From contig CAVPCR010000004.1 of the NCBI GenBank assembly GCA_963702435.1, positions 416,001 to 480,000 of the forward strand: a DNA stretch of 64,000 nt, in the 5' to 3' direction. Numbering within the stretch: the first letter of the stretch is position 1; every line of letters starts with the position of its first letter. Shown piece after piece: positions 2,256 through 51,021 of the stretch. Origin of the DNA: Candidatus Eiseniibacteriota bacterium. GTDB lineage: Bacteria; Eisenbacteria; RBG-16-71-46; CAVPCR01. The translations under genes and the position numbers were made by a program. The notes beneath the pieces were generated by a model. It saw only the letters and a list, made by a program, of their open reading frames with translations. It was not told the DNA's origin and made no database searches.

Positions 2256-2296
2256 CTGTGCCTCCCGAAAACTGTCTCTCTGTCCCTCCCGAAAAC
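2256..2296 (+). repeat. 17-bp direct repeat, probably a duplicated left end of the integrase-core IS
   Basis: ctgtgcctcccgaaaac at 2256-2272 and ctgtccctcccgaaaac at 2280-2296. Confidence 0.6.
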
Positions 2297-2444
2297 CCCG
2301 TAGCCGCCTGCCCCAATTGAGTATGCGCCCGCTCGGCCTCGCCGTCCTGCCGTTCTTCCCGTGCCGACCAGCGGAATCGGGTACTCCCTTGCGTCGTGGT
2401 AGTCTCCCTGCTCTCCCCGCAGGCCCGAGCGGTTGCCGCGACCC

Positions 2445-3749
2445 ATGACGCCTATCTTCGCCGCCCTCTTCGCGTTCCTCGGCGCCAGCCTTCGTTCCCG
2501 GGCCTCGATGCAGCTTGAGATCCTCGCGCTCCGGCATCAGTTGGCCGTCTGCCAGCGATCTCTGAAGCGACCGCGTCTCCGGCCCGCCGACCGCCTCCTC
2601 TGGCCCTGGCTCGCCCGCCTCTGGCCGCGCTGGCGAGAAGCCCTCATGATCGTTCAGCCGAGAACCGTCATCACCTGGCAACGGCGCCGCTTCCGCGAGC
2701 ACTGGACCCGTCTCTGCCGCTCGGGGAAACCTGGACGGCCGTTGGTAGCGAAAGAAGTGCGTGTTCTCATCCGGCGGCTGTCGGCCGCCAATCCACTCTG
2801 GGGAGCACCGAGGATTGTCGGCGAGCTCGCCAAGATCGGAATCGCCGTGACCAAGGCCACGGTCGAGAAGTACACGCTCGCCAACTGGCATCCCCACCTG
2901 CACGTGCTCGCCACCGACGGCGCCTTTCGGCCCGACGGCACGTTCGTGCCGCTCGGTGTTCACTCGCTCGCGGTGCTGACCGAGGCGTTCCGCCGCGCCG
3001 TGCTCCGCGCCTTCGTCCAGCGCGGCCTGTTCAGCGCCGAGGTGGCCGCCTCCATGCGCGCCTGGCCCCACTCCGGCTTCCATGTCCACAACGCCGTGCG
3101 GCTCGATGGGGATGACCTCGGCGGCCTCTTGCCGCTCGCTCGCTACGCAGCCCGCGCCCCCCTCGCCCTCACCCGCATCACCTACGACGCTGCAAAGCCG
3201 CAGGTCCTGGTTGCCTCCGACAAGGCCGAAGGGCCCACCGCCGGGACGCATGCCTTCGCTCCTCTCGACTTCCTTGCCCAGCTCCTCACCCACATCCCGC
3301 GCCAGGGCGAACACCTCGTGCGCTACTACGGCGCGTATGCGAGCCGCACCCGCGGCACCTGGCGCCGGCAAGGGATCGGCCCCTGGGTCGAGCGGCAGCG
3401 CGGCGAGGGGGACCAAGAGGACGAGCCACCGGGTGCACCCCGCGATGCCAACGCTGATCCTGGCGGTGACCCGGTGGTGCCACCTCCGGAACCGCTATCC
3501 CCATCGCGGGCCGCGCTCAGGAAGCGCTGGGCGGAACTCCTCCGTCGCCTCTACGAGGTCGATCCGCTGAGTTGCCCGCGGTGCGGGGGCGAGATGCGGA
3601 TCATCGCCTTCCTCCTCGATCCACCGGTGATCGACGCCATCCTCCGCCACCTCCGCCGCGCTGCCTACGACGCGCGGGCCGGCCCGTGGGCGGAGGTGGT
3701 TGGGAGCAATGCGGTGGCGGGGGACGCCGGCCCGGCGGGGTGCGGCTAG
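2445..3749 (+). CDS. Chimeric transposase: integrase-core IS N-terminus fused in frame to the IS91/ISCR HUH domain
   Basis: LEILALRHQL...ANPLWGAPRIVGELAKIG..ATVEKY is joined at 2873 to TLANWHPHLH. The IS91 zinc-binding N-domain is absent. Confidence 0.85.
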   Translation: MTPIFAALFAFLGASLRSRASMQLEILALRHQLAVCQRSLKRPRLRPADRLLWPWLARLWPRWREALMIVQPRTVITWQRRRFREHWTRLCRSGKPGRPLVAKEVRVLIRRLSAANPLWGAPRIVGELAKIGIAVTKATVEKYTLANWHPHLHVLATDGAFRPDGTFVPLGVHSLAVLTEAFRRAVLRAFVQRGLFSAEVAASMRAWPHSGFHVHNAVRLDGDDLGGLLPLARYAARAPLALTRITYDAAKPQVLVASDKAEGPTAGTHAFAPLDFLAQLLTHIPRQGEHLVRYYGAYASRTRGTWRRQGIGPWVERQRGEGDQEDEPPGAPRDANADPGGDPVVPPPEPLSPSRAALRKRWAELLRRLYEVDPLSCPRCGGEMRIIAFLLDPPVIDAILRHLRRAAYDARAGPWAEVVGSNAVAGDAGPAGCG

Positions 3750-4021
3750 CCCGGCCGGCCGCGGCCAGCGCGCGGTTTGGGGTGCTGCCGATCACCATCG
3801 GCAGCGCAAGGGGAGAGGTGCGCCCAGCCGCGACCGGGCGTCGGTCGGCGGGGCCGCATCGCGGTGCGGCGGCCGCGGCCACCCCGCGGCAACGTCGGGC
3901 CACGACGCGCAGTCGCCGGTCACGCCACGCCGCGGACGCCTCCCGGTCGGTCGCGCGCGCGGCTTGGCTCCCCCTTCTCCTCCTCCTCCCAGGCTATTGA
4001 CGAAAGGAAATTCCTATCCCT
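2873..4021 (+). mobile_element. IS91/ISCR-like element, copy 1 (5'-truncated, ori end intact)
   Basis: Near-identical to the copy at 20309-22134 from cacgctcgccaactgg to aattcctatccct. Confidence 0.9.
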
Positions 4022-4256
4022 TGATCGGCTGTACGACGCTGAGGGCCAGAACGTCGGGTACTTTCGCGGTGATGTCGCGTATTCGCTTCAGGGAGATTAC
4101 CTCGGCGAGCTATACGACGACGAGCGCATCGGGAAGCGCACGACGCGCATGCAGAGCAGAGGAAGCGCGATGATGGGGCACGTCGGGATCGCCCTGATGA
4201 GGCAAGTCGGACGCGTCGGCCTGTCGGTTGCTGGGTGGTCAGACCCGGATTTCTAA
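4022..4256 (+). pseudogene. 5'-truncated small protein resembling the 4-fold beta-flower family
   Basis: LYDAEGQNVGYFRGDVAYSLQGDYLGEL has a repeated beta-hairpin pattern. It has no start codon of its own and begins at the IS end. Confidence 0.5.
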
Positions 4257-4311
4257 CCTCGAGGCAGCTCTGACGCGGGAGTTGGGGTAATGGAGTTGCG
4301 GAGGGACGCTA

Positions 4312-4345
4312 AAAAGGGCCCCAGGTGAGTGCCTGGAGCCCTTTT
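4312..4345. terminator. Bidirectional intrinsic terminator
   Basis: aaaagggccccagg-tgagtg-cctggagccctttt between convergent ORFs. Confidence 0.75.
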
Positions 4346-4362
4346 CGAGGCGTGTTCAGTGA

Positions 4363-5097
4363 CTAAGGACCGGATGGTTGACACGTGTCAATGCCGGGGA
4401 CCTCTACGCCGATGGCTCCTCGCTGATCTTGTGGAATGGGCGTGGGCATGTTTCCACCGGCGGTTATAACATGGGTCCCGAGGGGGAACTCAGCCTCGGC
4501 GATGGTGAGCATCGTTCCTGGATTCCCAGCTCGGATGAGCAGGCGGCCGATAGGAGCAAGATCTCCACCACGCAGAGGGTTGAAAGCGACGGCATAGTTA
4601 CCATTGCCAGTACAGGGCGTGACCACCTCGATGGCTCCTGATCGGCAGCTGCCGATCCATCCGTAGCAAGTCCAGCTTGGATCCCATGAGAGGCGCAGCT
4701 GGATGCCGGTCACGGCCTCGTAGTCAATGAGGTAGACGTACACGATGACGAGCGCTGCGGAGTCGACCGTGGTGGTCGCGGTCTGCGTGGCGCAGTCGAG
4801 TCCCTGGAGCTGCGGCGTCTCACAAGTGGAGGCCGGATCGTAGGACACAGCGTGGAGGACGATGCGCGTATCTGCGTTGGGTGTGCTTGGTGGCGCCTCG
4901 ACGGGGGTGGGGGTGACATCGGTGACTCCAGACGTGTCGATGACGACGCCTACGGAGTCATCTACCTGTAGATGGCCGTCGCCTGGCACCACCGCTGGGG
5001 GGTTGATGGCTTTGTTCCCGGGAGGGGCGCCGGGATCAAGACAGCTCAGTGCGGCCATGAGGCCCAGGAGCACTGAGACCAGAGTAAGGTTTTTCAT
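4363..5097 (-). CDS. Lipoprotein of unknown function (beta-sandwich/cohesin-like)
   Basis: AAGGAG RBS; MKNLTLVSVLLGLMAALS-C lipobox-like signal; Pro/Thr linker then a Cys-containing beta-rich domain. Confidence 0.7.
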   Translation of the reverse strand: MKNLTLVSVLLGLMAALSCLDPGAPPGNKAINPPAVVPGDGHLQVDDSVGVVIDTSGVTDVTPTPVEAPPSTPNADTRIVLHAVSYDPASTCETPQLQGLDCATQTATTTVDSAALVIVYVYLIDYEAVTGIQLRLSWDPSWTCYGWIGSCRSGAIEVVTPCTGNGNYAVAFNPLRGGDLAPIGRLLIRAGNPGTMLTIAEAEFPLGTHVITAGGNMPTPIPQDQRGAIGVEVPGIDTCQPSGP

Positions 5098-5113
5098 TTC
5101 GGTACTCCTTTGC

Positions 5114-6350
5114 TTACCTGAGGACAATGGCCTTATGGGTGAGGTCTCGGCCGGCGGCGTGGATGCGGTAGAAGTAGACGCCGGAGGAGACCGGTTGCCC
5201 GCCATCAGTGCGGCCGTCCCAGGTGGCGGCGTGCTCGCCGGGGTCTTCGAAACGGTCGACGAGCCGGCGGATGAGGCGACCACTGGGCGTGAGGACATCG
5301 AGAGTTACGTGCCCGCGAGTCGGGAGCTGGTAGGTGATGCGGGCAGATCCGGGCGAGGGGTTCGGCGCTATCCCGCGAAGCGCAAACGGTGGGGCCATCG
5401 GCACGTGATCCCGGACGGCGTAGACGAGTCCGAGACAGTTCGTGCCCTTGGGGACGCCGATGTCGAGAAAGATGTTCCCTGGTTCGTTCGCAAAGGGGTA
5501 CCCGAAGGTGTCCCATCCTTCGCAGAACTCAGAGAATTCATAGATGAAGTGCCCGCCGATCATGTAGTTGACCGAGACATCGGCGATCTCAGTTATCCCG
5601 GTATAGAAGGTGGTGCTGTTGTCGTCATCGTTATAGGCGTCGTGGTCGTTGGGAAGGTCGTAGATGTCCCAGAGGTGGGTGGCGACGGCACGCTCCGCCG
5701 ATTCCCCGCGCGGGTAAGGGGTGTTTCCGCCCCATTCGAGGTCGTAGGTCTCGGGCAGCGTGTCGTTGAGGGCACCGTTGTAGACGTAATCTTCGAACAG
5801 GAAATCGTTGGTGGCCCCGCACGGGTAGAACCACGCCCAGCCTTCACTGTACGCGCAGTATGGGTCGGTGACAGCCCCCCAGTGATGGCTGTTGCAGGGG
5901 GTGGTCGGCGGTGGGAGGGCCGCAAGGGTGTTCAACACGTGATGGGCATATTCATGGCCGATGATGTCGAAGTCCCACTCATCGAATCGAATGTCGCTTG
6001 GTGGATTGCTGTAGCCATCGAGGTGGATGATCGCATCTAGGCGTGTGTAGTAGGAGTATGTTTGTGGTAGCGTGCGGTCCCAAATGCACTGGACTGGCGG
6101 GGCAGTGTAACCGGTCGCCGTCTCGGTGAAGTGGGCGAGGTCGTAAAGGTCGTATGTGATGTTGAAAGCACCGCGCTCGGTGCCGGTATAGGTGAAGGCC
6201 CCATAGAGGCCTTCGAGATCGATGAAGTTGGCGTTGTTGACGTACCGGGCCGCAAGGGGAAGCCAGACGCCATATCCATAGAGGTAGTCGTCTTGATCGA
6301 CAACGGTCCGGTAGTCGACCAGGTCGGTGGTCCATGTCGGGATGAAGAGC
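5114..6350 (-). pseudogene. C-terminal half of a secreted Zn-metallopeptidase with FlgD-Ig domain, interrupted by a transposon
   Basis: The frame is open from 6349 to the stop at 5114: DEWDFDIIGHEYAHH (HExxH), AYSEGWAWF, PNPSPG...WDGRTDGGQPVSSGVYFYRI. Confidence 0.85.
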
Positions 6351-6407
6351 TGTGAGCGTGGGCGCGGTGTTTGATGGCATTTGAGTCACGCATGTCGAGG
6401 GGAGTGT

Positions 6408-7247
6408 TTATCGCGCCTTGGCGCGGCCGCGGTCGGGGACCTTCGGCACGGTGAAGACCTCGAGGTAGAGCTTTTCGTCGAGCTGGCGTGCATCACGCTG
6501 AACGGCAGCATCGAGGAGCTCTCCGGCCATGGTCATGAGGATGCGGTAGTTGCCGGCGGCGTGCTCGCAGAGCGTGGTCATGAGCTCGGTCGTCATCAAG
6601 TGCGGGTTTCCGGTCTGGTTGAGGGCGTGACGCAAGCATTCGAGCAGTTCCTGTGGAGTGGCGGGCTGGAGGACGAGGCGAACACGCATCCGGCTGCCGA
6701 GGGGAAGGAGCTCCTCGCCGCGGAAGTTCTCGGTCAGGCGAGAGTCACCGCCGAGGACGACGGTGAGGAGCGCGCGGGAGTCGAGCTCGGTGGCGCAGAG
6801 CAGGCGGAGCTCGTTGAGCACGGCGGGCCGCATCTCCTGTGCCTCGTCGACGATGAGCACGGGACGGAGGAGAGCGGCTTCGATGTGCGCTTGCCAGCGT
6901 TCGCGGAGCACCCGGGCTCCGGCCCAGCGGTTGTGGGGTGAGAGCTGAACGCCGAACAGGTCGCCGAGCTCGCGGTAGAAGTCGGGGACGCCGCTCTGGG
7001 GACGGGTGAGGATCCCGACCATGAGGTCACGATGTCCGGAGAGCTTGTCGACGAGGAGCCGCAGCGCGACCGACTTGCCGAGTCCGGGATCGCCGGTGAT
7101 CAGGGCGAAGCCTCCTTCGCGGGTCAGGTTCTCGACGCGCCACGAGAAGTGCTCGAGCTTGGGAGTGAGGAGGAGCGCCTCGATGGGGACCTCGGGCGAG
7201 AAGGGGTTCCACTTGAGGCCATGGAGCGAGAGGAGCTTCGGGTTCAT
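6408..7247 (-). CDS. ExeA/GspA-family AAA ATPase (TnsC/MuB-like transposition helper)
   Basis: Walker A GDPGLGKS, Walker B LIVDEAQ, N-terminal GLKWNPF; overlaps the transposase stop. Confidence 0.9.
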   Translation of the reverse strand: MNPKLLSLHGLKWNPFSPEVPIEALLLTPKLEHFSWRVENLTREGGFALITGDPGLGKSVALRLLVDKLSGHRDLMVGILTRPQSGVPDFYRELGDLFGVQLSPHNRWAGARVLRERWQAHIEAALLRPVLIVDEAQEMRPAVLNELRLLCATELDSRALLTVVLGGDSRLTENFRGEELLPLGSRMRVRLVLQPATPQELLECLRHALNQTGNPHLMTTELMTTLCEHAAGNYRILMTMAGELLDAAVQRDARQLDEKLYLEVFTVPKVPDRGRAKAR

Positions 7248-8764
7248 GGCTGGTCCTCCTGGAGAGTGGTCTGCGGGGGCGGCGCGTGGTGCGCGGCGAG
7301 TGGATACGGTGCGGGTTTCGGGAGATAGGCCGGCGGGAGGCCGGTGGCGGCGTAATCTTTCATCAGCTGGCGCATCAACGGCGCCATGCCGGACTCGGTC
7401 GGCGGATCCTGATCGCGGGTGGCGAGGGGATCTTCAGGCAGTCGACGCCTGAGGCCGTCAGCGTTACGTGCCTTGTCGAGGGGGTAAAGTTGACAGAGTA
7501 CCGCTCCCGTGCGTTCGTCGACGAGGTGAACCTGAGAGAGGTCCCAGGTGGCGTAGCGCACGGCGACGCGTTCGAGGGTGCGGTAGTGCGCGGGGATCTC
7601 GAAGCGGCATCCCTCGAGCGTCAGGGTGCCGTCGCTACGGCGCTGAGTGCGCCGCACTTCGATCGTGAAGGCGAGGCGCAGCGGCTGGCTGTCGGGGCTC
7701 GATCGGCCGACGTCGGGTCCTTGGAGGTAGCGTTCGACGGGGGACTGGTGGATCTCGGAGTGCACGGTGCGGTTGTACTCCATCTCGGCCCAAGCCTGGG
7801 TGGCCTCGTTGAGAAGCGGCAGCGTCAGGTCGCGCACTCCTTCGAGCATGGCGATCAGCCGTCCTTCGAGCTGGGCCCAGAAGACTTCTTGTTTGGCGTT
7901 CTGGTAGGCGGAGTAGGGCAAGGTCAGGTGATGGAGGATGCCGAGCCGGGCCAGGCCCTGGGTCACCTCGCCAGCCTTCATGGCGGTGCCGTTGTCGCTC
8001 ATCAACGACCTCGGCAACGAGCGCTTCTGAATCGCCTGCGAGAGACCATGCACGAGGTTCTCCGCGTTCTCAGCGTGGTACCATTGCGCGTGACAGACCA
8101 ATCGTGAGCGATCATCGAGGATCGCCAGAACCTGCGGGATCACCCACTCGCCGTCGGGCGTGAGCACCTTCTTCGAGCCGGCGTGGAAGTCGAGATGCCA
8201 AAGCCCGTGGACGTACTCGGCCTCGAAGCTACGCACCTCGCGCTCATCGAGCCGTGCTTCGGCGCGTCGCACCCCGGTGGTGTCGGCGCTGGAGACCCGG
8301 CGCCGCTTCCACAGCCCGTTGGCCTTCATGAACCGACGGACGGTCGAGTACGAGGGTAGCGGCCCGAGGGTCGGATCCGCACCCGCCAGCACTGCGAGGT
8401 TGTCGTAGTGCAGCGCGTAGCTCCAACCGCGGTGGGCCTTGTACAGTTCGTGAATCGCCTGCTTGAGCCCGTCCCCGATCGCGAGCGCCCGGCCGGAGTC
8501 CTTGCGGATCTTGCGCCGAAGCACCCTGACTGGATCGAACCGCTCCCGCTTCGCCTGGTGATACCAACGTTCGATGGTCGACACCCCGAACTGCATCGGT
8601 CGAGCGGTCACGGGGTGGAGCCACTGCTTCTCGGCCAGCTTCCGGAGCTCGCCCTGAAGCTCGCCACGCGCCGGCGGCGCCGCCAGGAGCGGGCCGATCA
8701 CCGAGAAGCGCAGATGCGCCCAGCGTTCGTGGACCGTGAGCTTACGGTTCTCGTCGTCTGCCAT
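7244..8764 (-). CDS. DDE transposase/integrase (rve plus Mu-like C-terminus)
   Basis: LWHLDFH, ILDDRSR, MSDNG, PYSAYQNAKQE, YNRTVHSE, RSDGTLTLEG. Confidence 0.9.
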   Translation of the reverse strand: MADDENRKLTVHERWAHLRFSVIGPLLAAPPARGELQGELRKLAEKQWLHPVTARPMQFGVSTIERWYHQAKRERFDPVRVLRRKIRKDSGRALAIGDGLKQAIHELYKAHRGWSYALHYDNLAVLAGADPTLGPLPSYSTVRRFMKANGLWKRRRVSSADTTGVRRAEARLDEREVRSFEAEYVHGLWHLDFHAGSKKVLTPDGEWVIPQVLAILDDRSRLVCHAQWYHAENAENLVHGLSQAIQKRSLPRSLMSDNGTAMKAGEVTQGLARLGILHHLTLPYSAYQNAKQEVFWAQLEGRLIAMLEGVRDLTLPLLNEATQAWAEMEYNRTVHSEIHQSPVERYLQGPDVGRSSPDSQPLRLAFTIEVRRTQRRSDGTLTLEGCRFEIPAHYRTLERVAVRYATWDLSQVHLVDERTGAVLCQLYPLDKARNADGLRRRLPEDPLATRDQDPPTESGMAPLMRQLMKDYAATGLPPAYLPKPAPYPLAAHHAPPPQTTLQEDQP

Positions 8765-8821
8765 CGCGTTCGCCTCCCTTTCGGGCGGCCGAGCCTGGCC
8801 GCCGTGATGTGGGAGCGGACG

Positions 8822-9460
8822 CTAATCGCGGTCACCCTCGGCCCGCACCGCGCGTCTTCTGCGGGTGGCCCGCGGGGTCACCCGGCGCCGCACATAGCTT
8901 GCGCATTCCGGCGCCGACGCGGTGGTGATCGGGGAGAGGAATCGCAGGAGGGCGATCAGCCGGGAACGGTCATCGCCAGGGAAGCGACCGAGGAGCACGC
9001 GGGGTAGATCCATCGCGAGCAGGCGTCCGGTGAACCGGCCGCGGGCCACGCTCCAGAACCGGCTACGCGCGAAGGTGGTGCGCCACCACCGGCGCCACCG
9101 GGCCAGGGTCCGGGAGCTCACCCCCAGCCATTGCCGAAGCTGCCGTTGAGCGCGCCCCCGCCCTCGCATCGCCGCCAGGACGACCACCGCCGCGGAGTAA
9201 ACCCGCCGGCCCAAGAAGCGTACCGAAGGTGGCGTCAGCCGCCGCCGGCACCCCTCCACGGCGCAGCACAAGCTCAGTCGGAGGTCATACCGGACCGCCA
9301 ACCGCTCTGGAAGACCCCGCGGCTTACGGGGGTAGTTCGCCTGGTCGACCCTCCCGCCGCACCACCCGCACCCCCCGCGGCGGGCCGCCCGGGCGAGATC
9401 CTGGTCGTACTGAAAAAGGACCTCGTAGAGCCGCTCGTCCCTGAGCAGATCCTGGTACAA
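8822..9460 (-). CDS. Transposon accessory protein with Cys clusters and HTH
   Basis: CGWCGG...ANYPRKPRG...SLCCAVEGCRRRLTPPSVRFLGRRVY...GVSSRTLARWRRWW. TTG start after AGGAGG (ATG at 9466 is an alternative). Confidence 0.75.
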   Translation of the reverse strand: MYQDLLRDERLYEVLFQYDQDLARAARRGGCGWCGGRVDQANYPRKPRGLPERLAVRYDLRLSLCCAVEGCRRRLTPPSVRFLGRRVYSAAVVVLAAMRGRGRAQRQLRQWLGVSSRTLARWRRWWRTTFARSRFWSVARGRFTGRLLAMDLPRVLLGRFPGDDRSRLIALLRFLSPITTASAPECASYVRRRVTPRATRRRRAVRAEGDRD

Positions 9461-9633
9461 TCCCATCCTCCTTCGTCTTTGCTGGACTGAAGGAGGAAAC
9501 CCCCTCGGGGCGCTTGAATCAAGCTCCTTGAGGGGGTTCTGCTTGCACTCCCTGATGGCGCCTCGGACGATTCCATCAGTGATCGTGATCCGAAACGCCG
9601 TCCCCGACCATCAACTTTCTTGCTTACGCTGAC

Positions 9634-10874
9634 TGATCGACTGATACGTTGTACATGCCCCAACTGCCAGAGCCGTCCGTCTCGGTCGCCTGGTCAAATC
9701 GGAAGTAGAATGTGCCGCCGGGGACGGTAAACTGGTACTGTCCGTTGGGGTGAGTGTAGTAAAGTTCAGTAAGAAGATACTTCATCGCCCTATTGGTCTG
9801 TGGCCCTGTCACGTTGTCGTAGTCCTGGTAGAGATACCTTCCCAAGATGTCGAAGTCGCGGACGACGCGCACGGGATAAGGATCCACGGTGAAGCCGGTT
9901 TTGCGGGCGCGGATCTCGCCGGTCATCGCGGCGGTGCCGGCAGTGAAGCGGGCTTTGTGATCGGGAAGCTCGGTGATGGTGCCTAAAGATGCCGGGACGA
10001 GCCACCACTCCTCCATGTCGAGGATCGTACCCGGAGGATACTCGTACCAGAAGAGCATGCAGTATCCGCTTGTGACTTGAAAGTATGGGAAGTTAACGGA
10101 ACGGACAGGACCGGCTGTGCAATCACCCTGGTAGCGGGGACTCAGGGATCCGTGGTCACGGGCAGGGGGCTGGGAATGCGGGGGATCGATGCAACAAGGG
10201 TCAGGGCGCTTGTTGACCTGGGGTGCGACGTCTGGTTCGGGGGGAACAGAGACGGTGGGTGGTGGGGGAGTGGTGACGGGGTGGCTTGTGCTATCGCTTC
10301 GAGGTGCACCCTCTGGGTATGCCTGGAGGATGTCGTAGGCAAATGGCGGCGTGGGGGAGGAGGGATCAGGGGCGCGTGGACGGTAACCGTGGATGCAAAC
10401 AGGAAGGGATGCCGCTGCCAGAGGGGTATCGGGAGATGCAGGCCCGTCGGCCGTGCAGGACCACGGACGGATGGGGTTGATGCACTGTGCGCGGATGGTG
10501 TCGCTTCCGCAAGTGGTGGCAACGAAACGCACAGAGAGTTGGAGGGGCGTATGTGGCTTGAATGAACCACGCCAGTGCTTGCCCTTCCGCGTCAAGAGGA
10601 CACCGCCCTCACGCGTCCAGACGGTGCGCGACGTGGTGTCTTGGGGCGCAGCGATAGCTATGCCCGGACAACCGAGTGATGCCAGGGCAAGATCCATTGG
10701 CGCATCAGCGGTAAAGCTCGCAGTTACCGAGACCGTGTCCCCGACGCTAATCTCGGTCTTGGAAGCAGTGAGTTGAACGCGAACGTTCGGAGCAGGCTCT
10801 TGGGGCGCTGCGGAGGTCGAGGAGATTGCCAAAACAAATGCAGCGCAAGCAAGGGCCGGGTTGAGATGCTTCAT
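9634..10874 (-). pseudogene. N-terminal half of the interrupted secreted metallopeptidase
   Basis: GGAGG RBS and signal peptide MKHLNPALACAAFVLAISSTSA. The premature stop lies inside the transposon end. Confidence 0.8.
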
Positions 10875-11038
10875 ATCGGCCTCCTGCCTGCCGGGATGGG
10901 TCCCTGAATGATACTCCTGCGAAGAGCGGGGCAAGAAGAAATTGTGTATCCGCTAAGACGCTGCAACAACGACGGTTGCAATAGGCAGTGAAACGAGCGG
11001 ACCACGAGAGAAGAGACCGAAGGGACCGACCGATCATT

Positions 11039-12724: not shown

Positions 12725-12738
12725 TATCCCTTATCCCT
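12718..12738 (+). repeat. (TATCCCT)3 at the IS ori end
   Basis: tatccct tatccct tatccct. Confidence 0.95.
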
Positions 12739-13453: not shown

Positions 13454-13474
13454 CGCCGCCTCCTGGCACCCGGC

Positions 13475-17341: not shown

Positions 17342-17378
17342 GCAAGCAGAGGGCGCTCGATAGAGATGCGCACGAACG

Positions 17379-17413
17379 CGCAGCCCCGGCGGAGACCCTC
17401 CGCCGGGGCTGCG
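17379..17413 (+). terminator. Perfect 16-bp hairpin after the gene (terminator-like, no U tract)
   Basis: cgcagccccggcggag-acc-ctccgccggggctgcg. Confidence 0.55.
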
Positions 17414-17843
17414 TGCTGTACGAGGACCGCACGAGTGTTTCGCCCGAGCAACCCGCCGCCATCGATGGCATCGCCACGGACATGTGCCCGCCCTACATCG
17501 AGTCGACCAAGGCGTAGGTGCCGGATCCCGCGAAGAAGAGCGTTCTGGCCATCGCGCGGGTACCGCAACCGGGCTCGGTTCCGCAACGCGATCCTCTTCC
17601 ATCCCGGAGACCTCGAGCTACATCCACGCCCCGCGGAAGTCATCCGATGAACTCACCCGCACGAAAGCTGGAAGAGCCCCATTTAATGTCATCCTCGCAT
17701 GAGATTCACGCTCCTATCGCACGCCGCCGCTAGCGTCATTCCCGGCAAGCGGAGGTGCCCCGAGTCCGGATGCTCGCGGCCGCGCGAGGGCCAGGCTCTC
17801 GGCTCCGCCTCCATCATGAGCAGGAACGTGGACAAGGGGGTAT

Positions 17844-19871
17844 GTGATGATGCGGCACTGGTTCGGAACTGGTTGCGTATTCCTGGCCTTCATGCTGTCG
17901 TTCACCGGTCTGGCGCAGGCGCAGGTCAAGAACTTCATCGTCATGATCAGTGACGGGTGGGGAGAATCGCAGATCGACGCCACCGCCTACTGGAACGGCT
18001 CCAACCCGGTCTACGAGACCGAGCCCGGCTGGACCAAGATCGGGATGAGCAACTACATGTACCAGCTGGGTAACGAGAACCCGCCCTACGGCAATCCGGG
18101 TTTCATCGGCATCCATGGTTACGATCCCGACTCGGCGTGGGCCGACTGGATGTACATGCAGAACTACGCTACCGACTCCGCCGCCGCCGCAACGGCCATG
18201 TCATGCGGAGAGAAGTCATACAACGGCGGCATCGGCTACAACTGGAATCATGTCTCGCTGACGCACATGTTCGAGCATGCAGAAGCGGCCGGCCTCTCCA
18301 CGGGCGTCGTGACGACCGTGCCCCTGAGCCATGCCACCCCGGCGGCCTTCCGCGCGCACAACATCCACCGCAACAATTACGCCGAGATCGCGCGTGAGCT
18401 GTTCGCGTCTCCGCTCAAGGTCGTCATGGGCGGCGGCCACCCGAACTACGGCGAGAATGGCCAGTGGGAGCCGGGTAATCCCTCCGTTCCCGCCGACTGG
18501 CGGTACGTAGGCGGTTACGACCAGTGGAACGACCTCGTGGCGGGCGTCGGCGGCTGGACCCTCATCGAGGAGAGGGCCGACTTCGAGGCGCTGGCCAACG
18601 GCACTCTGGTCGTCGACCGCGTCGCCGGCATTCCGCAGGTGGCTCAAACCGTGCAATACAATCGCGCGGGCATGCCGCCCTTCAACAGCACGGAGCCGCC
18701 CTACACTGTGCCCTTCATCGCGAACGTGCCGACTCTCGAGACCATGACCAGGGGCGCCCTCAACGTCCTGGAGCAGAATCCGCTCGGCTTCGCCCTGATG
18801 ATCGAGGGCGGGGCCATCGACTGGGCCGGCCACGGGCGCACGCTCGGGCGGCTGATCGAGGAGCAGAACGACTTCGACGCCTCTGTCGCGGCCGTCGTCG
18901 ACTGGGTCGAGACCAACAGCAACTGGAACGAGACGATCCTCGTCGTCACCGGCGATCATGAGACCGGCTTCCTGTGGGGCCCGGGGATCGATCCCGCCAA
19001 CTCGAGCACGTGGTTCATCCCGGTCCAGGACAACGGTCCCAGCAGCATGCCCGGCTTCTACTTCTACAGCGCTCCTCGCGACAACTGGCAGAATCCGACC
19101 AACGAAGCCGGCCACACGAACCAGATCATCCCCTTCTACATGAAGGGCGCCGCTTCCGCCGTCCTCGTCGCCTACGCGGACGAGTTCGACATGCAGTGGG
19201 GCGCTCTCGGCGGCTATGACGGCCGCTATCTGGACAACACCGAGCTAGGCCTCGGGCTCATCTCCCTGGTCAACACCACGACCCCGGTCGAGCTCGCCTC
19301 CTTCGAGCTCACGAGCACGGATGGCGTCGTCTCGATCGCCTGGGAGACCTCGTTCGAGGATCGGAGCGCGGGCTTCAACATCCTGCGCGCGACGGAGGGT
19401 GCGGCCGCGGTGCAGGTGAACGACCAGACGATCCCGAGCCATGGCGGGAACGGCACGGCTCGCTACGAGTTCGTCGACCGCGCGGTCGCACGCGGCGCCA
19501 CCTACGAGTACACGCTCGAGTCGATCGACCTGAACGGCGCGACCGAGCGTCACTCGCTCGGCCTCGTGACCGTGGCGACCGGGTCTCCGATCCGCCAGCT
19601 CAGCCTGAGTCAGAACACGCCCAACCCGTTCAACCCGACGACCCTGATCTCCTTCGAGATGGCTGCCGCCGGGCACGCGAAGCTCGACATCTATGACGCC
19701 GCCGGGCACCTGATCCGCACCCTGGTCGACAGCGCTCTGCCCGCCGACCGGCACACAGTGGAATGGAACGGACTCGAGCAGAGCGGCCAGGCGGTCAATT
19801 CGGGGATCTACTTCTGCCGCCTCCAGGCGGGTAGCAGCACCCTGACCCGCAAGATGACGCTCATGAAGTAA
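17844..19871 (+). CDS. Alkaline phosphatase (PhoA family) with C-terminal FlgD-Ig domain
   Basis: MISDGWG, TDSAAAATAM (catalytic Ser), SHATPAAF, EGGAIDWAGH, TGDHETG; QNTPNPFNPTT...SGIYFCRL. Confidence 0.92.
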   Translation: MMMRHWFGTGCVFLAFMLSFTGLAQAQVKNFIVMISDGWGESQIDATAYWNGSNPVYETEPGWTKIGMSNYMYQLGNENPPYGNPGFIGIHGYDPDSAWADWMYMQNYATDSAAAATAMSCGEKSYNGGIGYNWNHVSLTHMFEHAEAAGLSTGVVTTVPLSHATPAAFRAHNIHRNNYAEIARELFASPLKVVMGGGHPNYGENGQWEPGNPSVPADWRYVGGYDQWNDLVAGVGGWTLIEERADFEALANGTLVVDRVAGIPQVAQTVQYNRAGMPPFNSTEPPYTVPFIANVPTLETMTRGALNVLEQNPLGFALMIEGGAIDWAGHGRTLGRLIEEQNDFDASVAAVVDWVETNSNWNETILVVTGDHETGFLWGPGIDPANSSTWFIPVQDNGPSSMPGFYFYSAPRDNWQNPTNEAGHTNQIIPFYMKGAASAVLVAYADEFDMQWGALGGYDGRYLDNTELGLGLISLVNTTTPVELASFELTSTDGVVSIAWETSFEDRSAGFNILRATEGAAAVQVNDQTIPSHGGNGTARYEFVDRAVARGATYEYTLESIDLNGATERHSLGLVTVATGSPIRQLSLSQNTPNPFNPTTLISFEMAAAGHAKLDIYDAAGHLIRTLVDSALPADRHTVEWNGLEQSGQAVNSGIYFCRLQAGSSTLTRKMTLMK

Positions 19872-19900
19872 GGCCATTTGTCCTCCCACTTTCTGTTGAG

Positions 19901-19943
19901 CGAGGCCGAGGTGGCCCCTAGATTGGGGCCACCTCGGACCTCG
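19901..19943. repeat. Strong inverted repeat (terminator or IS-end remnant)
   Basis: ccgaggtggcccc-tagatt-ggggccacctcgg, extendable by cgagg/cctcg. Confidence 0.55.
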
Positions 19944-19999
19944 GAGACAGAGGGGATGGAGGGCGCGATGGCAAAGCTTCGCTCGCCGCGGGTCCTCAT

Positions 20000-20185
20000 G
20001 CTCCGGTCGCAGGAGCCGCCGGTGTCCTCCCGGCTCCTGGCGCGGGTGCGCGGTCACCAGGCGGAGACCCATCAAAGATGCGGACCGGGGCCCAGGTCTC
20101 CCGGACTTCGAGCCGGCGTCCGATGAAGGCGGCGGGAACCGAGTAGCGGTTGGCGTGCAGGTTGATGTAACCATCGACGCTGCAT
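20000..20185 (-). pseudogene. IS21 IstA C-terminal fragment
   Basis: VDGYINLHANRYSVPAAFIGRRLEVRE...VRIFDG. Confidence 0.7.
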
Positions 20186-20308
20186 CTCCTCACCGGGATC
20201 GAAGTGATAGTGACCGGGCAGGCGACCGCTGATCGCGCGCTGGTCGAGAAGGCCTATCGATTGCTCGTCGAGTTCCGGGACCGGGCCCCGGAGTCGTACC
20301 GCGGGAAG

Positions 20309-22134
20309 CTTCCGTGTACCTCGTTGCCGGGGGTTCGGCCGCTGACCCGGGGAAGCCGCTGACTCCCGCCCCGATAGTCCTGGCATCGATCGTGATCCGG
20401 TCCCGGGGGCGTGGTCGCATCTCTCGGCAACGACCCGAAGACGCGGGCCGCGGGCACCCGTCTGTCCGCTACCGGCGCCCGCACCGGTGTCTACCGGCCG
20501 CGCCGTCCCCAGGCCTCGCCGCTCTACCGGCTGATCGAGGAGCACTTCGAGCGGGTGGCCACGGCATGGGAGGAGCGCTACGAGCCGCGCTACGGTCGGT
20601 GGCGGCCGGTCATGCGCGCGGTGGTCGAGAAGTTTCTCGATTGCGGCTTGCTCGAGCCGGGCTTCGCGCGGGTGCGTTGCGGCGACTGCGGGGCCGAGTT
20701 CCTGCTTGCCTTCAGCTGCAAGTGCCGCTACTTCTGTCCGTCCTGCCACGCCAAGCGCCTGGCCCTCTGGTGCGACTGGCTCGAGCGCGAGCTCCTGCTG
20801 CCGATCCCGCATCGGCAGTACGTCTTCACCGTCCCCAAGCGCCTGCGACCCTACTTCCTCTACGACCGCCGTCTGCTCGGGCTGTTGAGCCGTGTCGCCT
20901 ACGACACCATGCGCGACTTCATGCGCGCCACCCTCGGCGCGGATGACGTCGTCCCCGGCGTCATCTCCTCGATCCAGACCCATGGCACGCTCGCCAACTG
21001 GCATCCCCACCTGCACGTGCTCGCCACCGACGGCGCCTTTCGGCCCGACGGCACGTTCGTGCCGCTCGGTGTTCACTCGCTCGCGGTGCTGACCGAGGCG
21101 TTCCGCCGCGCCGTGCTCCGCGCCTTCGTCCAGCGCGGCCTGTTCAGCGCCGAGGTGGCCGCCTCCATGCTCGCCTGGCCCCACTCCGGCTTCCATGTCC
21201 ACAACGCCGTGCGGCTCGATGGGGATGACCTCGGCGGCCTCTTGCCGCTCGCTCGCTACGCAGCCCGCGCCCCCCTCGCCCTCACCCGCCTCACCTACGA
21301 CGCTGCAAAGCCGCAGGTCTTCGTCATCTCCGACAAGGCCGAAGGGCCCACCGCCGGGACGCATGCCTTCGCTCCTCTCGACTTCCTTGCCCAGCTCCTC
21401 ACCCACATCCCGCGCCAGGGCGAACACCTCGTGCGCTACTACGGCGCGTATGCGAGCCGCACCCGCGGCACCTGGCGCCGGCAAGGGATCGGCCCCTGGG
21501 TCGAGCGGCAGCGCGGCGAGGGGGACCAAGAGGACGAGCCACCGGGTGCACCCCGCGATGCCAACGCTGATCCTGGCGGTGACCCGGTGGTGCCACCTCC
21601 GGAACCGCTATCCCCATCGCGGGCCGCGCTCAGGAAGCGCTGGGCGGAACTCCTCCGTCGCCTCTACGAGGTCGATCCGCTGAGTTGCCCGCGGTGCGGG
21701 GGCGAGATGCGGATCATCGCCTTCCTCCTCGATCCACCGGTGATCGACGCCATCCTCCGCCACCTCCGCCGCGCTGCCTACGACGCGCGGGCCGGCCCGT
21801 GGGCGGAGGTGGTTGGGAGCAATGCGGTGGCGGGGGACGCCGGCCCGGCGGGGTGCGGCTAGCCCGGCCGGCCGCGGCCAGCGCGCGGTTTGGGGTGCTG
21901 CCGATCACCATCGGCAGCGCGAGGGGAGAGGCGCGCCCAGCCGCGACCGGGCGTCGGTCGGCAGGGCCGCATCGCGGTGCGGCGGCCGCGGCCACCCCGC
22001 GGCAACGTCGGGCCACGACGCGCAGTCGCCGGTCACGCCACGCCGCGGACGCCTCCCGGTCGGTCGCGCGCGCGGCTTGGCTCCCCCTTCTCCTCCTCCT
22101 CCCAGGCTATTGACGAAAGGAAATCCCTATCCCT
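20309..22134 (+). mobile_element. IS91/ISCR-like copy 3, apparently full length
   Basis: Homology with inverted copy 5 begins at cttccgtg (20309) and the copy ends aaatccctatccct. No terminal inverted repeats. Confidence 0.9.
20411..21862 (+). CDS. IS91/ISCR-family HUH rolling-circle transposase
   Basis: Zn domain CGDC...SCKCRYFCPSC, HRQYVFTVPKRLR, HUH motif HPHLH, single-Tyr ARYAAR as in ISCR, VRYYG, CPRCGGEMRIIAF. Confidence 0.95.
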   Translation: MVASLGNDPKTRAAGTRLSATGARTGVYRPRRPQASPLYRLIEEHFERVATAWEERYEPRYGRWRPVMRAVVEKFLDCGLLEPGFARVRCGDCGAEFLLAFSCKCRYFCPSCHAKRLALWCDWLERELLLPIPHRQYVFTVPKRLRPYFLYDRRLLGLLSRVAYDTMRDFMRATLGADDVVPGVISSIQTHGTLANWHPHLHVLATDGAFRPDGTFVPLGVHSLAVLTEAFRRAVLRAFVQRGLFSAEVAASMLAWPHSGFHVHNAVRLDGDDLGGLLPLARYAARAPLALTRLTYDAAKPQVFVISDKAEGPTAGTHAFAPLDFLAQLLTHIPRQGEHLVRYYGAYASRTRGTWRRQGIGPWVERQRGEGDQEDEPPGAPRDANADPGGDPVVPPPEPLSPSRAALRKRWAELLRRLYEVDPLSCPRCGGEMRIIAFLLDPPVIDAILRHLRRAAYDARAGPWAEVVGSNAVAGDAGPAGCG

Positions 22135-22901
22135 AACAGGTCATGGAGACCTTCGGCCGCAACCTCGGCGTGAAGGTCGTGCACGTGGACGCTGCGGAGA
22201 ATTTCCTGGGCGAGCTTGCCGGCGTGGCCGATCCCGAGCAGAAGCGCCGCGTCATCGGGCGCATCTTCGTCGAGGTGTTCCAGCGCGAGGCGGCGAAGCT
22301 CCCCAAGGCGCGCTGGCTCGCGCAGGGCACCATCTACCCCGACGTCATCGAGTCGGCCGGCGGCAAGACCAAGAAGGCGCACACCATCAAGAGCCACCAC
22401 AACGTGGGCGGTCTCCCCGAGACGCTGAACCTCAAGCTGCTCGAGCCGCTGCGCGAGCTCTTCAAGGACGAGGTGCGGGAGCTGGGCATCGCGCTGGGCC
22501 TCGCGCACGAGATGGTCTACCGCCACCCGTTCCCGGGGCCGGGGCTGGGCGTGCGCATTTTGGGCGAGGTGAAGCGCGAGTACGCGGAGCTCCTGCGGCG
22601 CGCCGACGCGATCTTCATCGACGAGCTGCGCGCCGCCGACTGGTACGACAAGACCTCGCAGGCCTTCGCCGTGTTCCTGCCCGTGAAGTCCGTGGGCGTG
22701 ATGGGCGACGGGCGGACCTACGAGTACGTCGTCGCGCTGCGCGCCGTCCAGACGCAGGACTTCATGACCGCCCACTGGGCCGAGCTTCCCCACGCGCTGC
22801 TGGGCAAGGTCTCCAACCGCATCATCAACGAGGTGCGGGGCATCAACCGCGTCGTCTACGACATCTCCGGCAAGCCCCCCGCCACTATTGAGTGGGAGTA
22901 G
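22135..22901 (+). pseudogene. guaA: GMP synthase, 3' half only
   Basis: [63 protein letters not shown]. The GATase domain and SGGVDS motif are missing; it starts at the IS end. Confidence 0.95.
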
Positions 22902-23068
22902 GGGGTCTGCGCTCCTGATTGCGCGTCCACCGGGCGTGGTGCCGATCGCAATAGCCGCGATGCCGTTCCGTCCTGATTGGCAAGCGTCGTTGGCCCGTCG
23001 GGGGCGACCGGTGTCAGGAGGATCCTCACGCAGCTGGCGACCAGAGCTGCCTTGCCGATGGACCCTGC

Positions 23069-25861
23069 TCAGGCGCGTCTTCGATTGCGGATCAACTTCT
23101 CCACAGAGATCACCGGCAGGATGATCGCGCCGGCCAATGCGCTGAAGAGAAGCGACTGCACGGTCAGCGGGAAGGTGGAGAAGATCGCCTGCATCGGCGG
23201 GGCGTAGATGAACAGCGCTTGCAGGGCCAGGACCGCGGCGATGCCGATGAACACCGTCTTGTTGCTGAAGAAGCCGATTCTGAAGATCGAGTCCTTCAGC
23301 GAGCGGCAGCTCAGCATGTAGAAGACCTGGAACATGATCACCGTGGTGACCGCCATCGTCTGCGCCTCGCTCACGATCTGGGCTTCGGTCAGACCGGTGC
23401 TTGCGCGGGTGGCCATCTCCAGCTCGTACCTCCAGAGGAAGAGGCCCACGGCGCCGGCGGCCATGAGAGTGGCCGCCAGGAAGGTGCGGAACACCACGAA
23501 CTTGTTCAGCACCGGCTCCTTCGGGTCGCGCGGCGGGCGGTTCATCACGTCCGGCTCCTTCGCCTCGAAGGCAAGCGGCAGGGCGAGAGCCACGGCGGCG
23601 ACCAGGTTGATCCAGAGCAGCTGGGTCGGCAACATCGGCAGCAGCAGGTCCTTGACCACCTGGCCGTCGAAGGTCTTCTCGACCAGCGGGAAGAACGCGA
23701 CCGCATAGATCAGGATCAGCGCGAGGCCGAGGTTGGTGGGCAGTACGAACGCCAGCGACTTGATGAGGTTGTCGTAGACGCGGCGGCCTTCTTCCACCGC
23801 CGCGGCGATGGAGGCGAAGTTGTCGTCCGTGAGCACGATGTCGGCGGCTTCCTTGGAAACCGAGGTGCCGGTGATCCCCATCGCCACGCCGATGTTCGAC
23901 TGCTTGAGCGCGGGCGCGTCGTTCACCCCGTCGCCGGTCATCGCCGTCACCTGGCCGTTGTCTTGCAGGGCGCGCACGAGGCGCAGCTTGTGCTCGGGGG
24001 CCACGCGGGCGAAGACGTTGTGGTCCTTCACGATCTCGCGCATGGCGGTCTCGTCCATCTCGGCGAGCTGGACGCCGGTCACGGCCTTGGCGCCATGCTT
24101 GGCGATGCCCAGCTGTTCACCAATGGCCTGGGCGGTGCCCATGTGGTCGCCGGTGATCATCTTGACCGTGATGCCGGCCTGGTGGCAGGCGCGGATGGCG
24201 TCGATCACCTCGGTGCGCGGCGGGTCGATCATGGCCTGCAGGCCGGTGAACTCGAAGCCCTGGGCGCAGTCTTCCATGGTCAGTCCGGCGCGGTCGAACC
24301 GCTTCTCGGCAAAGCCGAGCACGCGCATGCCCTCGTTCGCGAACGCCTCCACGTGGTGGATCACCGTGTCCGGGTCCACGTTGCCGCAGCGCCTCAACAC
24401 CATCTCGGGCGCGCCCTTGATGATGATCTTCTGGCCCTCGGCGCCCCAGTCGTGCAGCGTGGCCATGAACTGGTTGGCGCTCTCGAACGGGATCGTGTCG
24501 AGGCGAGCGTGGCGCATGCGGGCGTTCGGGGTGTGGATGCCGAACTTCTCTCCAGCGGTCACGAGCGCGCCTTCGGTCGGGTCTCCGGTGATCTGCCAGC
24601 GGCCTTCCTTCTGCTCCAGGGTAGCGTCGCAGCAGAGGATGCCGGCCAGCAGCAGTTCGTGCACGTCGTTGGAGGTGGGGGTGAGGGGGTCGCCATCCTT
24701 CGACAGGCGGCCGACGGGCTCATAGCCCGCGCCCTCCACGCGGTACACGCCCGACCCCGGCAGATAGAGCGCCTGCACCGTCATCTCGTTGCGCGTGAGG
24801 GTGCCGGTCTTGTCCGAGCAGATCACGGTGGTGCTGCCCAGCGTCTCCACCGAAGGCAGCTTGCGCACCACGGCGCGACGGGCGGCCATGCGCTGCACGC
24901 CGATGGCCAGCGCGATGGTCACGATGGCGGGCAAGCCCTCGGGAATGGCGCCCACCGCCAGCGTGATGGCGAAGATGACCGATTCGCGCAGGCCGGTCAG
25001 CAGCTCCACGCCGCCTTCCAACATCGCCCGGGCCGTGCCCACGAAGAGGATCACCACCGAGATCACCGCGATACCGACGGTGAGCACGATGCCGATCTTG
25101 TGCAAGGCGATGCTCAGCGGGGTCTCCATCGCGGTGGCCTCGCCCAGCATCGCGTTGATGCGGCCGAGTTCGGTGCCGTTTCCGGTGGTGGTCACCATGC
25201 CCAGGCCCGTCCCGTAGGTCACCAGCGAGCCGCTGAACGCCATGTTCCTGCGGTCGCCCAGGCCGGCGTTCTCGGCCACGGGTTCGGTCATCTTCTCCAC
25301 CGGAACCGACTCGCCGGTCAGCGCCGCCTCCTCGATCTGCAGCGTGCGCAAGTGGAAGAGGCGCATGTCGGCGGGCACCTTGTCGCCGCTTTGCAGGAAC
25401 ACCACGTCGCCGCGCACCAGATCGGCCACCGGCAACTGCACGCGCTTGCCGTCGCGTTGAACGGTGGCGAACTCCGGCACCATCGCGCTCAGGCTTTCGA
25501 TCGCCTTGCTCGCCTTGTATTCCTGCGCGAAGCCGATGATCGTGTTGATGATCACCACCGCCAGGATCACGAGGCCGTTCTTGATGCCGTCGGCCGGGTC
25601 GACCAGCATCGCTATCACCGCGCTGCCGATCAGCACCCAGATCAGCGGGTTGTTGATCTGGCGCCAGATCAGCTCCATGACTGACGCACCGCCCTTCTTG
25701 TCCAGCACGTTGGGGCCGAACTGGGTCAGGCGCTTCTGGGCCTCGTCGTTGGCCAGTCCGTCCCGAGTCGCGCTCAGGGCGGACAGCACATCATCAGGCG
25801 TCTGGGCGTGCCACGGGCGGTTGGCCGCTCCCTGCGAGCGCTTGTCGAATGAATAGACCAC
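23069..25861 (-). CDS. P2-type cation-transporting ATPase (probable Mn2+/Ca2+ exporter)
   Basis: [38 protein letters not shown] start after GAGGAG. Confidence 0.93.
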
Positions 25862-25919
25862 TGCTTCGCTCCTCAATGCGTCAACGCGACAGCGTTGGCG
25901 CGGGCGTCTACATGAGGTC

Positions 25920-26030
25920 GCGTTGGTCTTGCGTCGCCGCGTTCGCCTTCGGCGGGCGGCGTGCCCCGGGCGGATCCGTCTCCAGACCGTGTTGACGCCC
26001 GAAAGCCACTTGGGAGCTACTCCCCAGCAC
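25920..26030 (-). ncRNA. yybP-ykoY (Mn2+) riboswitch
   Basis: Minus strand reads gtgctggGGAGTAGC...CGTCAACAC...GCAAGAccaacgc, with P1 gtgctgg/ccaacgc, about 60 nt upstream of a P-type ATPase. Confidence 0.8.
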
Positions 26031-26186
26031 GTCCTATCGAAAGCACATGATACCTGTTAGAGGCCAAGCAATACGGGCTCATCTCGTCGCGGCAATTACG
26101 ACTTCAACGACGATCCGGGCCATCCGAAGTGGGTCATCCGAGCGGGTCAGTGAATCCTACGGCGCGGATCCAAGCGCGAAGATGTT

Positions 26187-27471
26187 CCTACTTCCTCTAC
26201 GACCGCCGTCTGCTCGGGCTGTTGAGCCGTGTCGCCTACGACACCCTGCGCGACTTCATGCGCGCCACCCTCGGCGCGGATGACGTCGTCCCCGGCGTCA
26301 TCTCCTCGATCCAGACCCATGGCACGCTCGCCAACTGGCATCCCCACCTGCACGTGCTCGCCACCGACGGCGCCTTTCGGCCCGACGGCACGTTCGTGCC
26401 GCTCGGTGTTCACTCGCTCGCGGTGCTGACCGAGGCGTTCCGCCGCGCCGTGCTCCGCGCCTTCGTCCAGCGCGGCCTGTTCAGCGCCGAGGTGGCCGCC
26501 TCCATGCGCGCCTGGCCCCACTCCGGCTTCCATGTCCACAACGCCGTGCGGCTCGATGGGGATGACCTCGGCGGCCTCTTGCCGCTCGCTCGCTACGCAG
26601 CCCGCGCCCCCCTCGCCCTCACCCGCATCACCTACGACGCTGCAAAGCCGCAGGTCCTGGTTGCCTCCGACAAGGCCGAAGGGCCCACCGCCGGGACGCA
26701 TGCCTTCGCTCCTCTCGACTTCCTTGCCCAGCTCCTCACCCACATCCCGCGCCAGGGCGAACACCTCGTGCGCTACTACGGCGCGTATGCGAGCCGCACC
26801 CGCGGCACCTGGCGCCGGCAAGGGATCGGCCCCTGGGTCGAGCGGCAGCGCGGCGAGGGGGACCAAGAGGACGAGCCACCGGGTGCACCCCGCGATGCCA
26901 ACGCTGATCCTGGCGGTGACCCGGTGGTGCCACCTCCGGAACCGCTATCCCCATCGCGGGCCGCGCTCAGGAAGCGCTGGGCGGAACTCCTCCGTCGCCT
27001 CTACGAGGTCGATCCGCTGAGTTGCCCGCGGTGCGGGGGCGAGATGCGGATCATCGCCTTCCTCCTCGATCCACCGGTGATCGACGCCATCCTCCGCCAC
27101 CTCCGCCGCGCTGCCTACGACGCGCGGGCCGGCCCGTGGGCGGAGGTGGTTGGGAGCAATGCGGTGGCGGGGGACGCCGGCCCGGCGGGGTGCGGCTAGC
27201 CCGGCCGGCCGCGGCCAGCGCGCGGTTGGGGGTGCTGCCGATCACCATCGGCAGCGCGAGGGGAGAGGCGCGCCCAGCCGCGACCGGGCGTCGGTCGGCA
27301 GGGCCGCATCGCGGTGCGGCGGCCGCGGCCACCCCGCGGCAACGTCGGGCCACGACGCGCAGTCGCCGGTCACGCCACGCCGCGGACGCCTCCCGGTCGG
27401 TCGCGCGCGCGGCTTGGCTCCCCCTTCTCCTCCTCCTCCCAGGCTATTGACGAAAGGAAATTCCTATCCCT
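26187..27471 (+). mobile_element. IS91/ISCR-like copy 4 (5'-truncated, Zn domain missing)
   Basis: Identity starts at cctacttcctctacgacc and ends at aattcctatccct, followed by one extra TATCCCT (27472-27478). Confidence 0.9.
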
Positions 27472-27602
27472 TATCCCTAGGAATCGCGCGTCCGAACCGC
27501 GCGTTGAAGTCCGTGGACCAGCACAGTGGCCCAGTTCACCTGGCCAGCGCCCAGCCCGGCAACGGACTTGAGAAATCTAAAGTAATGGTTTAGATTACTC
27601 AC

Positions 27603-50990: not shown

Positions 50991-51021
50991 ACTCGCCGCG
51001 GCCGTGGCGATCGCCGCAAAG

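Follow-up and report, generated by a model that had tools for sequence, protein, structure and literature searches.

Exact ori-tail duplications in a same-direction array of an ISCR-type element and cut cargo genes point to joining at the resident ori

We analysed a 64,000-nucleotide stretch of the genome of a Candidatus Eiseniibacteriota bacterium (GenBank assembly GCA_963702435.1, contig CAVPCR010000004.1, positions 416,001 to 480,000 of the forward strand; 'the window'), in which pieces of an IS91-family transposable element alternate with cargo DNA. Comparison of the window with itself found five same-direction element pieces, each ending at the element's replication origin (ori) with TATCCCT, at 4021, 12293, 12724, 22134 and 27471, and additional TATCCCT units at 12725, 12732 and 27472, just as an initial annotation of this DNA had described. 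The units, sized there at 431 bp and about 5.3, 8.3 and 9.4 kb, measure 8272, 431, 9396 and 5337 bp in their order along the array. The element copies are 98.8–99.7% identical to each other, with private substitutions and unique 5′ junctions.

The array opens with the left part of another mobile element, presumably of integrase-core type (2257–2872, plus strand; no Pfam or NCBIfam match), which is fused in frame to the C-terminal half of the IS91 transposase; the fusion open reading frame runs from 2433 to 3749. Copy 1 (2873–4021, plus strand), a 5′-truncated element of 1149 bp, ends at ori and is followed by cargo 1 (4022–11038), which comprises a beta-flower gene, FlgD-Ig genes and a separate insertion sequence of 3286 bp (6348–9633). 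Next come 106 bp of the integrase-type piece (11039–11144, plus strand, equal to 2767–2872), then copy 2 (11145–12293, plus strand), again ending at ori, and the mini-copy (12294–12724, plus strand), a 431-bp element tail that adjoins the ori of copy 2. Two exact 7-nt copies of the ori tail, with no flanking microhomology (12725–12738, plus strand), separate the mini-copy from cargo 2 (12739–20308), a mosaic without internal ori that holds an amylase, a glycoside hydrolase and an alkaline phosphatase with a FlgD-Ig domain. Copy 3 (20309–22134, plus strand) has an intact transposase, starts inside a putative terminator (ter) hairpin and ends at ori; behind it, cargo 3 (22135–26186) carries the 3′ half of a foreign guaA gene (22135–22901) and a P-type ATPase gene (23069–25876, minus strand). 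Copy 4 (26187–27471, plus strand), a 5′-truncated element of 1285 bp, ends at ori and is followed by one exact 7-nt ori-tail copy (27472–27478, plus strand).

Two details of the layout differ from the initial annotation, which had counted five different 5′ ends and read the 8.3-kb unit as captured DNA with an element part and ori. In copies 1 and 2 the element starts at the identical base (2873 = 11145). Both starts are preceded by one and the same stretch of 106 foreign bp, in which position 11039 lies, and the array element therefore has four breakpoints. The 8.3-kb length stands, but 3286 bp of that unit (6348–9633) are another insertion sequence. This insertion sequence has three genes (rve and AAA ATPase), is 99.9% identical to C1:1472917–1476202 on another contig of the assembly, and has 74% relatives on contigs C4 and C5. 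The mini-copy is 94.7% identical to the tail of copy 2 (23 of 431 bases differ) and 97.4% identical to a sixth copy described below. It belongs to a different allele than copy 2, and the 23 differences rule it out as a tandem duplicate of the copy 2 tail.

Copy 3 encodes an intact IS91-family transposase of 483 amino acids (gene 20411–21862), in which a domain scan found PF04986 (Y2_Tnp) and the zinc-binding PF14319. The protein scores 161.7 bits against the transposase profile NF033538 (cut-off 125) and 141.6 bits against the ISCR clade Ia profile NF052416, far below its curated cut-off of 925. In an alignment with ISPps1, ISVsa3 and two proteins of the plasmid pIAE1, the HUH residues H200/H202 and a single tyrosine, Y283, are invariant, with a proline four residues upstream of Y283. 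A single catalytic tyrosine is a feature of the ISCR group, whereas IS91, IS1294 and IS801 have a two-tyrosine motif; the element is an ISCR-type (single-tyrosine) IS91-family transposon. No solved structure was found for the transposase.

The 11 complete ori ends of the genome share one terminal base, lie downstream of the transposase gene where one is present, and are each followed by a different flank; no terminal inverted repeats were found in the window self-comparison. The ori motif occurs at 21 loci in a genome collection and at 73 in metagenomes, where it is conserved; of 206 genomes from the phylum, 11 have it. Many of these loci have a partial transposase or none. The ori pattern had no match in viral contigs, and a plasmid search with the last 100 bp of the element returned chance matches only. 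IS91 and its kin require CTTG or GTTC next to ori (PMC13181058). Over 122 ori junctions without duplication we found no such target tetranucleotide and only a weak C-then-A bias (base after the nick: C 58, T 25, G 23, A 16; next base: A in 58).

The 5′ end is less sharply defined. It is longest in the sixth copy, where an imperfect 8-bp hairpin at about 52827–52845 is the putative ter, and the start of copy 3 falls in the second arm of this hairpin. The hairpin has a fold z-score of −0.49, the ori and 5′ regions fold no better than shuffled sequences, and the position of the 5′ end is provisional. Position 20309, taken in the initial annotation as a 5′ end, is probably not the true one, since in the sixth copy similarity to a diverged copy continues to 52852; no copy in the array appears to carry the whole terminator.

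Comparison with full-length homologues and with a profile bore out the proposal that three genes at the cargo borders are cut mid-frame. The beta-flower gene at 4022 lacks about 18 of 95 residues, at its N-terminus; the amylase at 12739 breaks off at residue ~239 of ~492; and of the guaA profile, the fragment covers no more than positions 262–512. The host assembly (6 contigs, 4.98 Mb) is 85% complete, and in it we found neither the remainders of the amylase and beta-flower genes (four amylase queries and one beta-flower query) nor a second N-terminal half of guaA. The missing halves thus did not turn up beside other element copies, where ordinary insertion followed by rearrangement might have left them. 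Identity of the guaA fragment is 64% with the host's own gene and 59–66% with the orthologues of four relatives, whereas the host's guaA is 74–89% identical to those orthologues; the fragment, farther from them than the host's gene, is foreign. Its best solved match, 5tw7, which we take to be from Neisseria, scores 449 bits against 317 for the host's gene. The protein atlas gave no donor for guaA, and cargo 3 DNA compared with plasmids found distant ATPases only and no donor. The reading of the glycoside hydrolase gene of cargo 2 (14332–16217) passes through three frames, and a frameshift also interrupts the host's own guaA; these are either pseudogenes or long-read indel errors.

The most direct indication of how such an array might grow comes from the ori ends themselves. 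Exact copies of the last n bases of ori, 6–41 nt long, lie at the nick in 13 cases. In the host genome they occur at 4 of 11 complete junctions, compared with 325 of 66,800 random positions (0.5%). The plasmid pIAE1 has them at 4 of 17 junctions (37, 28, 13 and 22 nt), five further genomes at 4 of 29 (41, 13, 6 and 6 nt; 5 of these 29 junctions repeat loci of the genome collection), and the genome collection at 1 of 20 loci, an AT-rich contig without transposase having been excluded before counting. Boundary microhomology is absent from 9 of the 13 duplications and amounts to 3 nt in the three 6-nt units and 2 nt in the 41-nt unit. This rules out slippage as the source of the 7–37-nt units; a length of 7–22 nt is also too short for RecA. 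Near-duplications (3 of 73 metagenome junctions, against 2.4% expected by chance) are not informative. Longer element tails adjoin an ori at two other loci (50 nt at L057 and 331 nt at L072) as well as in the mini-copy (431 nt).

Every tail duplication ends on the nick, which points to the transposase, and the duplications may have arisen by nicking, synthesis of a few bases and resealing onto the held 5′ end. As the tail copies are exact, lie at the nick and mostly lack microhomology, they indicate that a resident ori accepts strand transfer; addition at the resident ori is directly supported for the 6–41-nt units.

The ori ends are also clustered. Nine of the 12 in the genome lie at C4:412,369–467,022, on the contig of the window, and three at C1:1,217,517–1,256,274. 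Each has another at most 35 kb away, and none of 100,000 random placements was as tight. The array forms part of an island. A sister genome, G001, is syntenic on both flanks and lacks the island: C4:408,749 and C4:469,135 match places in G001 that are 3.2 kb apart, so that about 60 kb are inserted in the host genome. At the same site G001 (C3:274–277 kb) has two genes, presumably peptidase-like, that are missing there in the host.

At the right border of the island, beside core genes, lies copy 6 (51019–52862, minus strand), which has an intact transposase gene (51281–52732) and an ori without its last bases; the near-full element within it spans 51022–52834. On the left, an ori tail piece of 99 bp has its 5′ end in the first 11 positions of the window (1–11, minus strand) and its other end at C4:415913, just outside the window, and ori tails of 38–147 bp are present in the genome. 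The remainder of the island (27479–51018), on the ori side of copy 6, encodes sigma-54 activators and membrane and secreted proteins and has no ori ends. Left of the array, a nucleotidyltransferase gene pair (1164–2290) has a counterpart of 98.6% identity in a mosaic region of G001; that region contains the element and shares other pieces, at 93–98% identity, with scattered places of the host genome. The 5′-side flank of copy 6 (52863–53936) recurs with 88–94% identity at C4:413113–414226 and C1:1217315–1217517, where it borders on an internal element piece and on a 147-bp ori tail, with the join at almost the same base. These recurrences are either a miniature element or the products of read-through that came from a relative.

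The same plan is found in complete plasmids. The best plasmid match (37% identity) is pIAE1 of Trichlorobacter lovleyi IAE, where 15 of 15 pieces of two related elements, spread from 162 to 253 kb, have the same strand, a common ori and varied 5′ ends. The 14 spacers between them (1.6–12.8 kb, GC 0.38–0.58) include cobalamin genes, a reductive dehalogenase cluster whose spacer is low in GC (0.42), and genes whose annotation extends into an ori; Tat genes and two copies of sul1 also belong to the array. Immediately before its start lies qacEdelta1-sul1, and a search of 7 kb upstream for the other half of a cut helicase gene met integron and transposon DNA instead. In pIAE1 the last three bases behind identical element bodies come in two alleles, each followed by different flanks, and the nick therefore seems to be set by distance from the conserved motif. 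On pADP-1, three same-strand copies of ISPps1 have three different flanks with catabolic genes between them, and two of the five further genomes, which were chosen for long contigs, have runs of three same-strand ori ends. Recurrence of the architecture in complete plasmid records, with synteny of the island flanks in the sister genome, favours the initial annotation over misassembly.

Public reads added less. Among the 24 runs listed, all as contigs, none contained half of the sequence words, and none has the array. In the seven runs examined no piece spans two of its copies, uncovered parts being uninformative, and among the matches listed none bridges an ori–cargo junction of this array. 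Unrelated runs contain the element at 93–99% identity, with 5′ loose ends at several places and a new flank exactly at 4021, and a 612-bp contig of one such run bridges the 2872/2873 fusion junction. Relatives of the cargo are abundant in sediments.

How, then, could the array have grown? We give about an even chance to a model in which the transposase joins the ori end to any free 3′ end, including that of a resident ori, so that ori itself is the likely entry point for new cargo. The transposase would nick the bottom strand at ori and hold the 5′ end, while synthesis displaces a strand towards the transposase gene, as is established for IS91. Copying would stop at random, either within the element or far past it, and so yield strands made of cargo, element part and ori; random stopping is suggested by the lack of a full 5′ end in all five array copies. 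The 3′ end joined to ori would need to match no sequence, as the lack of a target tetranucleotide after the nick suggests. Resealing of the newly extended 3′ end at the same ori, once n bases have been added, would duplicate the last n bases. Uptake at the nick of a strand that stems from another copy would place a whole unit behind the old ori and leave cut genes without their other half. Homologous recombination among near-identical copies, of which signs are seen, would then shuffle alleles and repeat blocks. The initial annotation had proposed repeated addition at an existing ori; the proposal is upheld for the 6–41-nt units. The kilobase units may have entered in the same way, but for these ori addition and the published ISCR route give the same structure and are not separable.

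Several observations weigh against growth at ori. Exact tail duplications were found at none of the 73 short-read metagenome junctions and none of 13 junctions from the phylum, and the three 6-nt duplications, with their 3 nt of microhomology, fit slippage. The 187 identical bases common to the mini-copy and copy 2 would suffice for a crossover. Joint arrival in one island would also cluster the ori ends. Left of the window, at the left end of the island, and on C1, neighbouring ori ends point in alternating directions. Signs of recombination are present in pIAE1, where two ori alleles are found with a single 5′ class and where blocks as long as 3.8 kb reappear together with the ori junction. 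Two of the five further genomes have a single copy, and in genome G208 the 17 matches are mostly scattered. Finally, read-through presupposes that the element was present in the DNA of the guaA donor.

The strongest competitor, possible though clearly less probable than growth at ori, is the published ISCR route. Here a read-through circle with an ori–cargo junction enters by homologous recombination within the element sequence that both partners share, and the short duplications are a separate by-product of nicking. A read-through circle has been observed for an IS91-like element (PMC5737581) and the circle-recombination model has been given for ISCR1 (PMC7707992). The route yields the same final structure, each kilobase unit has 431–1826 bp of homology on which it could act, and the allele mosaics of the window and of pIAE1 speak for it. 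It cannot, however, produce the 7–41-nt units, for which it requires a second mechanism that would itself show strand transfer at a resident ori, and the 38–147-bp tails in the genome offer little homology.

We judge it unlikely that the element has no preference for a resident ori and that it made independent one-ended insertions at random sites of a tolerant island, later altered by deletions that an ori mediated in adjacent DNA and by nested capture starting at an ori downstream. The mixed directions at the left end of the island and on C1, the scattered copies in G208, the mosaic of cargo 2 without internal ori and the gathering of other insertion sequences in the island are all as this history would have them. 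It nevertheless needs a separate loss for each missing gene half, and it leaves unexplained both the tails that adjoin an ori to the base and the 15 of 15 same-strand pieces in pIAE1.

Very little probability attaches to capture of free ends, in which the 3′ end of incoming foreign single-stranded DNA attacks the transposase–ori complex, so that each cargo would go with the ori to its left and would never have been beside the element in its donor. This would account for the lack of a target consensus and for a foreign guaA directly behind the ori of an element 99% identical to the host's other copies; nor did the 120 listed of 352 homologues, most of them without a host name, include a near-identical transposase whose host is both named and foreign. 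However, this reading gives no reason for the element piece at the end of every cargo, and the 5′-side flank of copy 6 is joined to element pieces elsewhere, as read-through predicts. Equally improbable is repeat-driven misassembly or chimeric joining of several organisms' DNA in the metagenome: the lack of a run that holds or a contig that spans the array, the frameshifts of the assembly and the abundance of cargo relatives in sediments would fit it, but the contig matches G001 both where it departs from the chromosome and where it returns to it, the copies have their private substitutions and unique 5′ junctions, the ori–gene joins are exact to the base, complete plasmids show the same plan and one junction is bridged in an unrelated run. 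Pending long reads, the array is real in all feasible tests.

Among the closest known systems is the ISPps1/ISCR8 group of pADP-1. Its ori ends in the same terminal motif, TTCCTATCCNT, and its transposase is 31–33% identical to that of the window, with the same HUH residues and single tyrosine. The pADP-1 copies differ in being full length, each paired with IS1071 and without tail duplication, whereas the window copies are variously truncated and have tail duplications. Helitrons capture gene fragments by read-through and carry mosaic cargo, as the window element seems to do; unlike them, it is bacterial, stacks at its origin and has no fused helicase, the 483-residue protein having only the two IS91 domains. 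IS91, IS1294 and IS801 share with it the Y2_Tnp and zinc-binding domains, the NF033538 score above cut-off and the ori downstream of the gene. They have two tyrosines to its one, and the window element has no target tetranucleotide. One-ended transposition without target duplication is described for all three (PMC13181058), and the window element is likened to them in this.

ISCR1 in complex class 1 integrons likewise has variable, often truncated DNA directly behind oriIS (93 groups; PMC6218425) and units that occur repeated (PMC7707992). Its published model invokes recombination in the 3′ conserved segment, while the window array lies in a chromosomal island with no integron seen beside it, and its transposase is far below the ISCR clade Ia cut-off. 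The general structure of ISCR elements has been described (PMC13393415), as has capture by ISCR28 between two sequential oriIS in a 'sandwich' (Yuan 2024, as cited in PMC12772301); according to PMC6218425, no demonstration of ISCR transposition is on record. With integrons the array shares a same-direction series of acquired DNA growing at a fixed site. Integron cassettes, though, hold whole genes, whereas the border genes here are cut mid-frame, cargo ends are random and each unit has its own ori; no IntI tyrosine recombinase was found among the 20 proteins scanned, a part of the island's open reading frames. The 'integron-like platform' of the initial annotation was thus an overstatement: no cassette site was seen, although no attC search was made, the units have no fixed 5′ boundary, most border genes are broken and related elements also occur singly. 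The array works like ISCR capture and is neither an integron nor a Helitron.

Variable DNA behind oriIS and repeated ISCR units were already published; what is new is the footprint that joining at a resident ori leaves, together with the size that the arrays reach. In the literature searched, which did not include two key ISCR papers, we found neither ori-tail duplications nor the use of ori for insertion nor the pIAE1 array described, though an earlier mention is possible. The exact ori-tail duplications are a sequence footprint of a transposase acting at a resident ori, and they suggest a simple assay, for strand transfer onto ori or for recA-independent tail growth. If whole units enter at ori, an ordinary-looking insertion sequence would be a self-extending gene collector, with a bearing on how catabolic and resistance genes spread, and its enzyme would be a sequence-tolerant joiner of single strands and possibly a tool. 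More tentatively, with somewhat less than even confidence, we propose that in a broad ISCR-type clade a single HUH enzyme captures any DNA and appends it at its own ori, which would serve as a programmed, recombinase-free site, building arrays of up to 90 kb that carry whole pathways across phyla, such as the reductive dehalogenase cluster of pIAE1, with tail duplications as the footprint. Were this so, the reaction would explain the 'variable regions' of ISCR elements in general.

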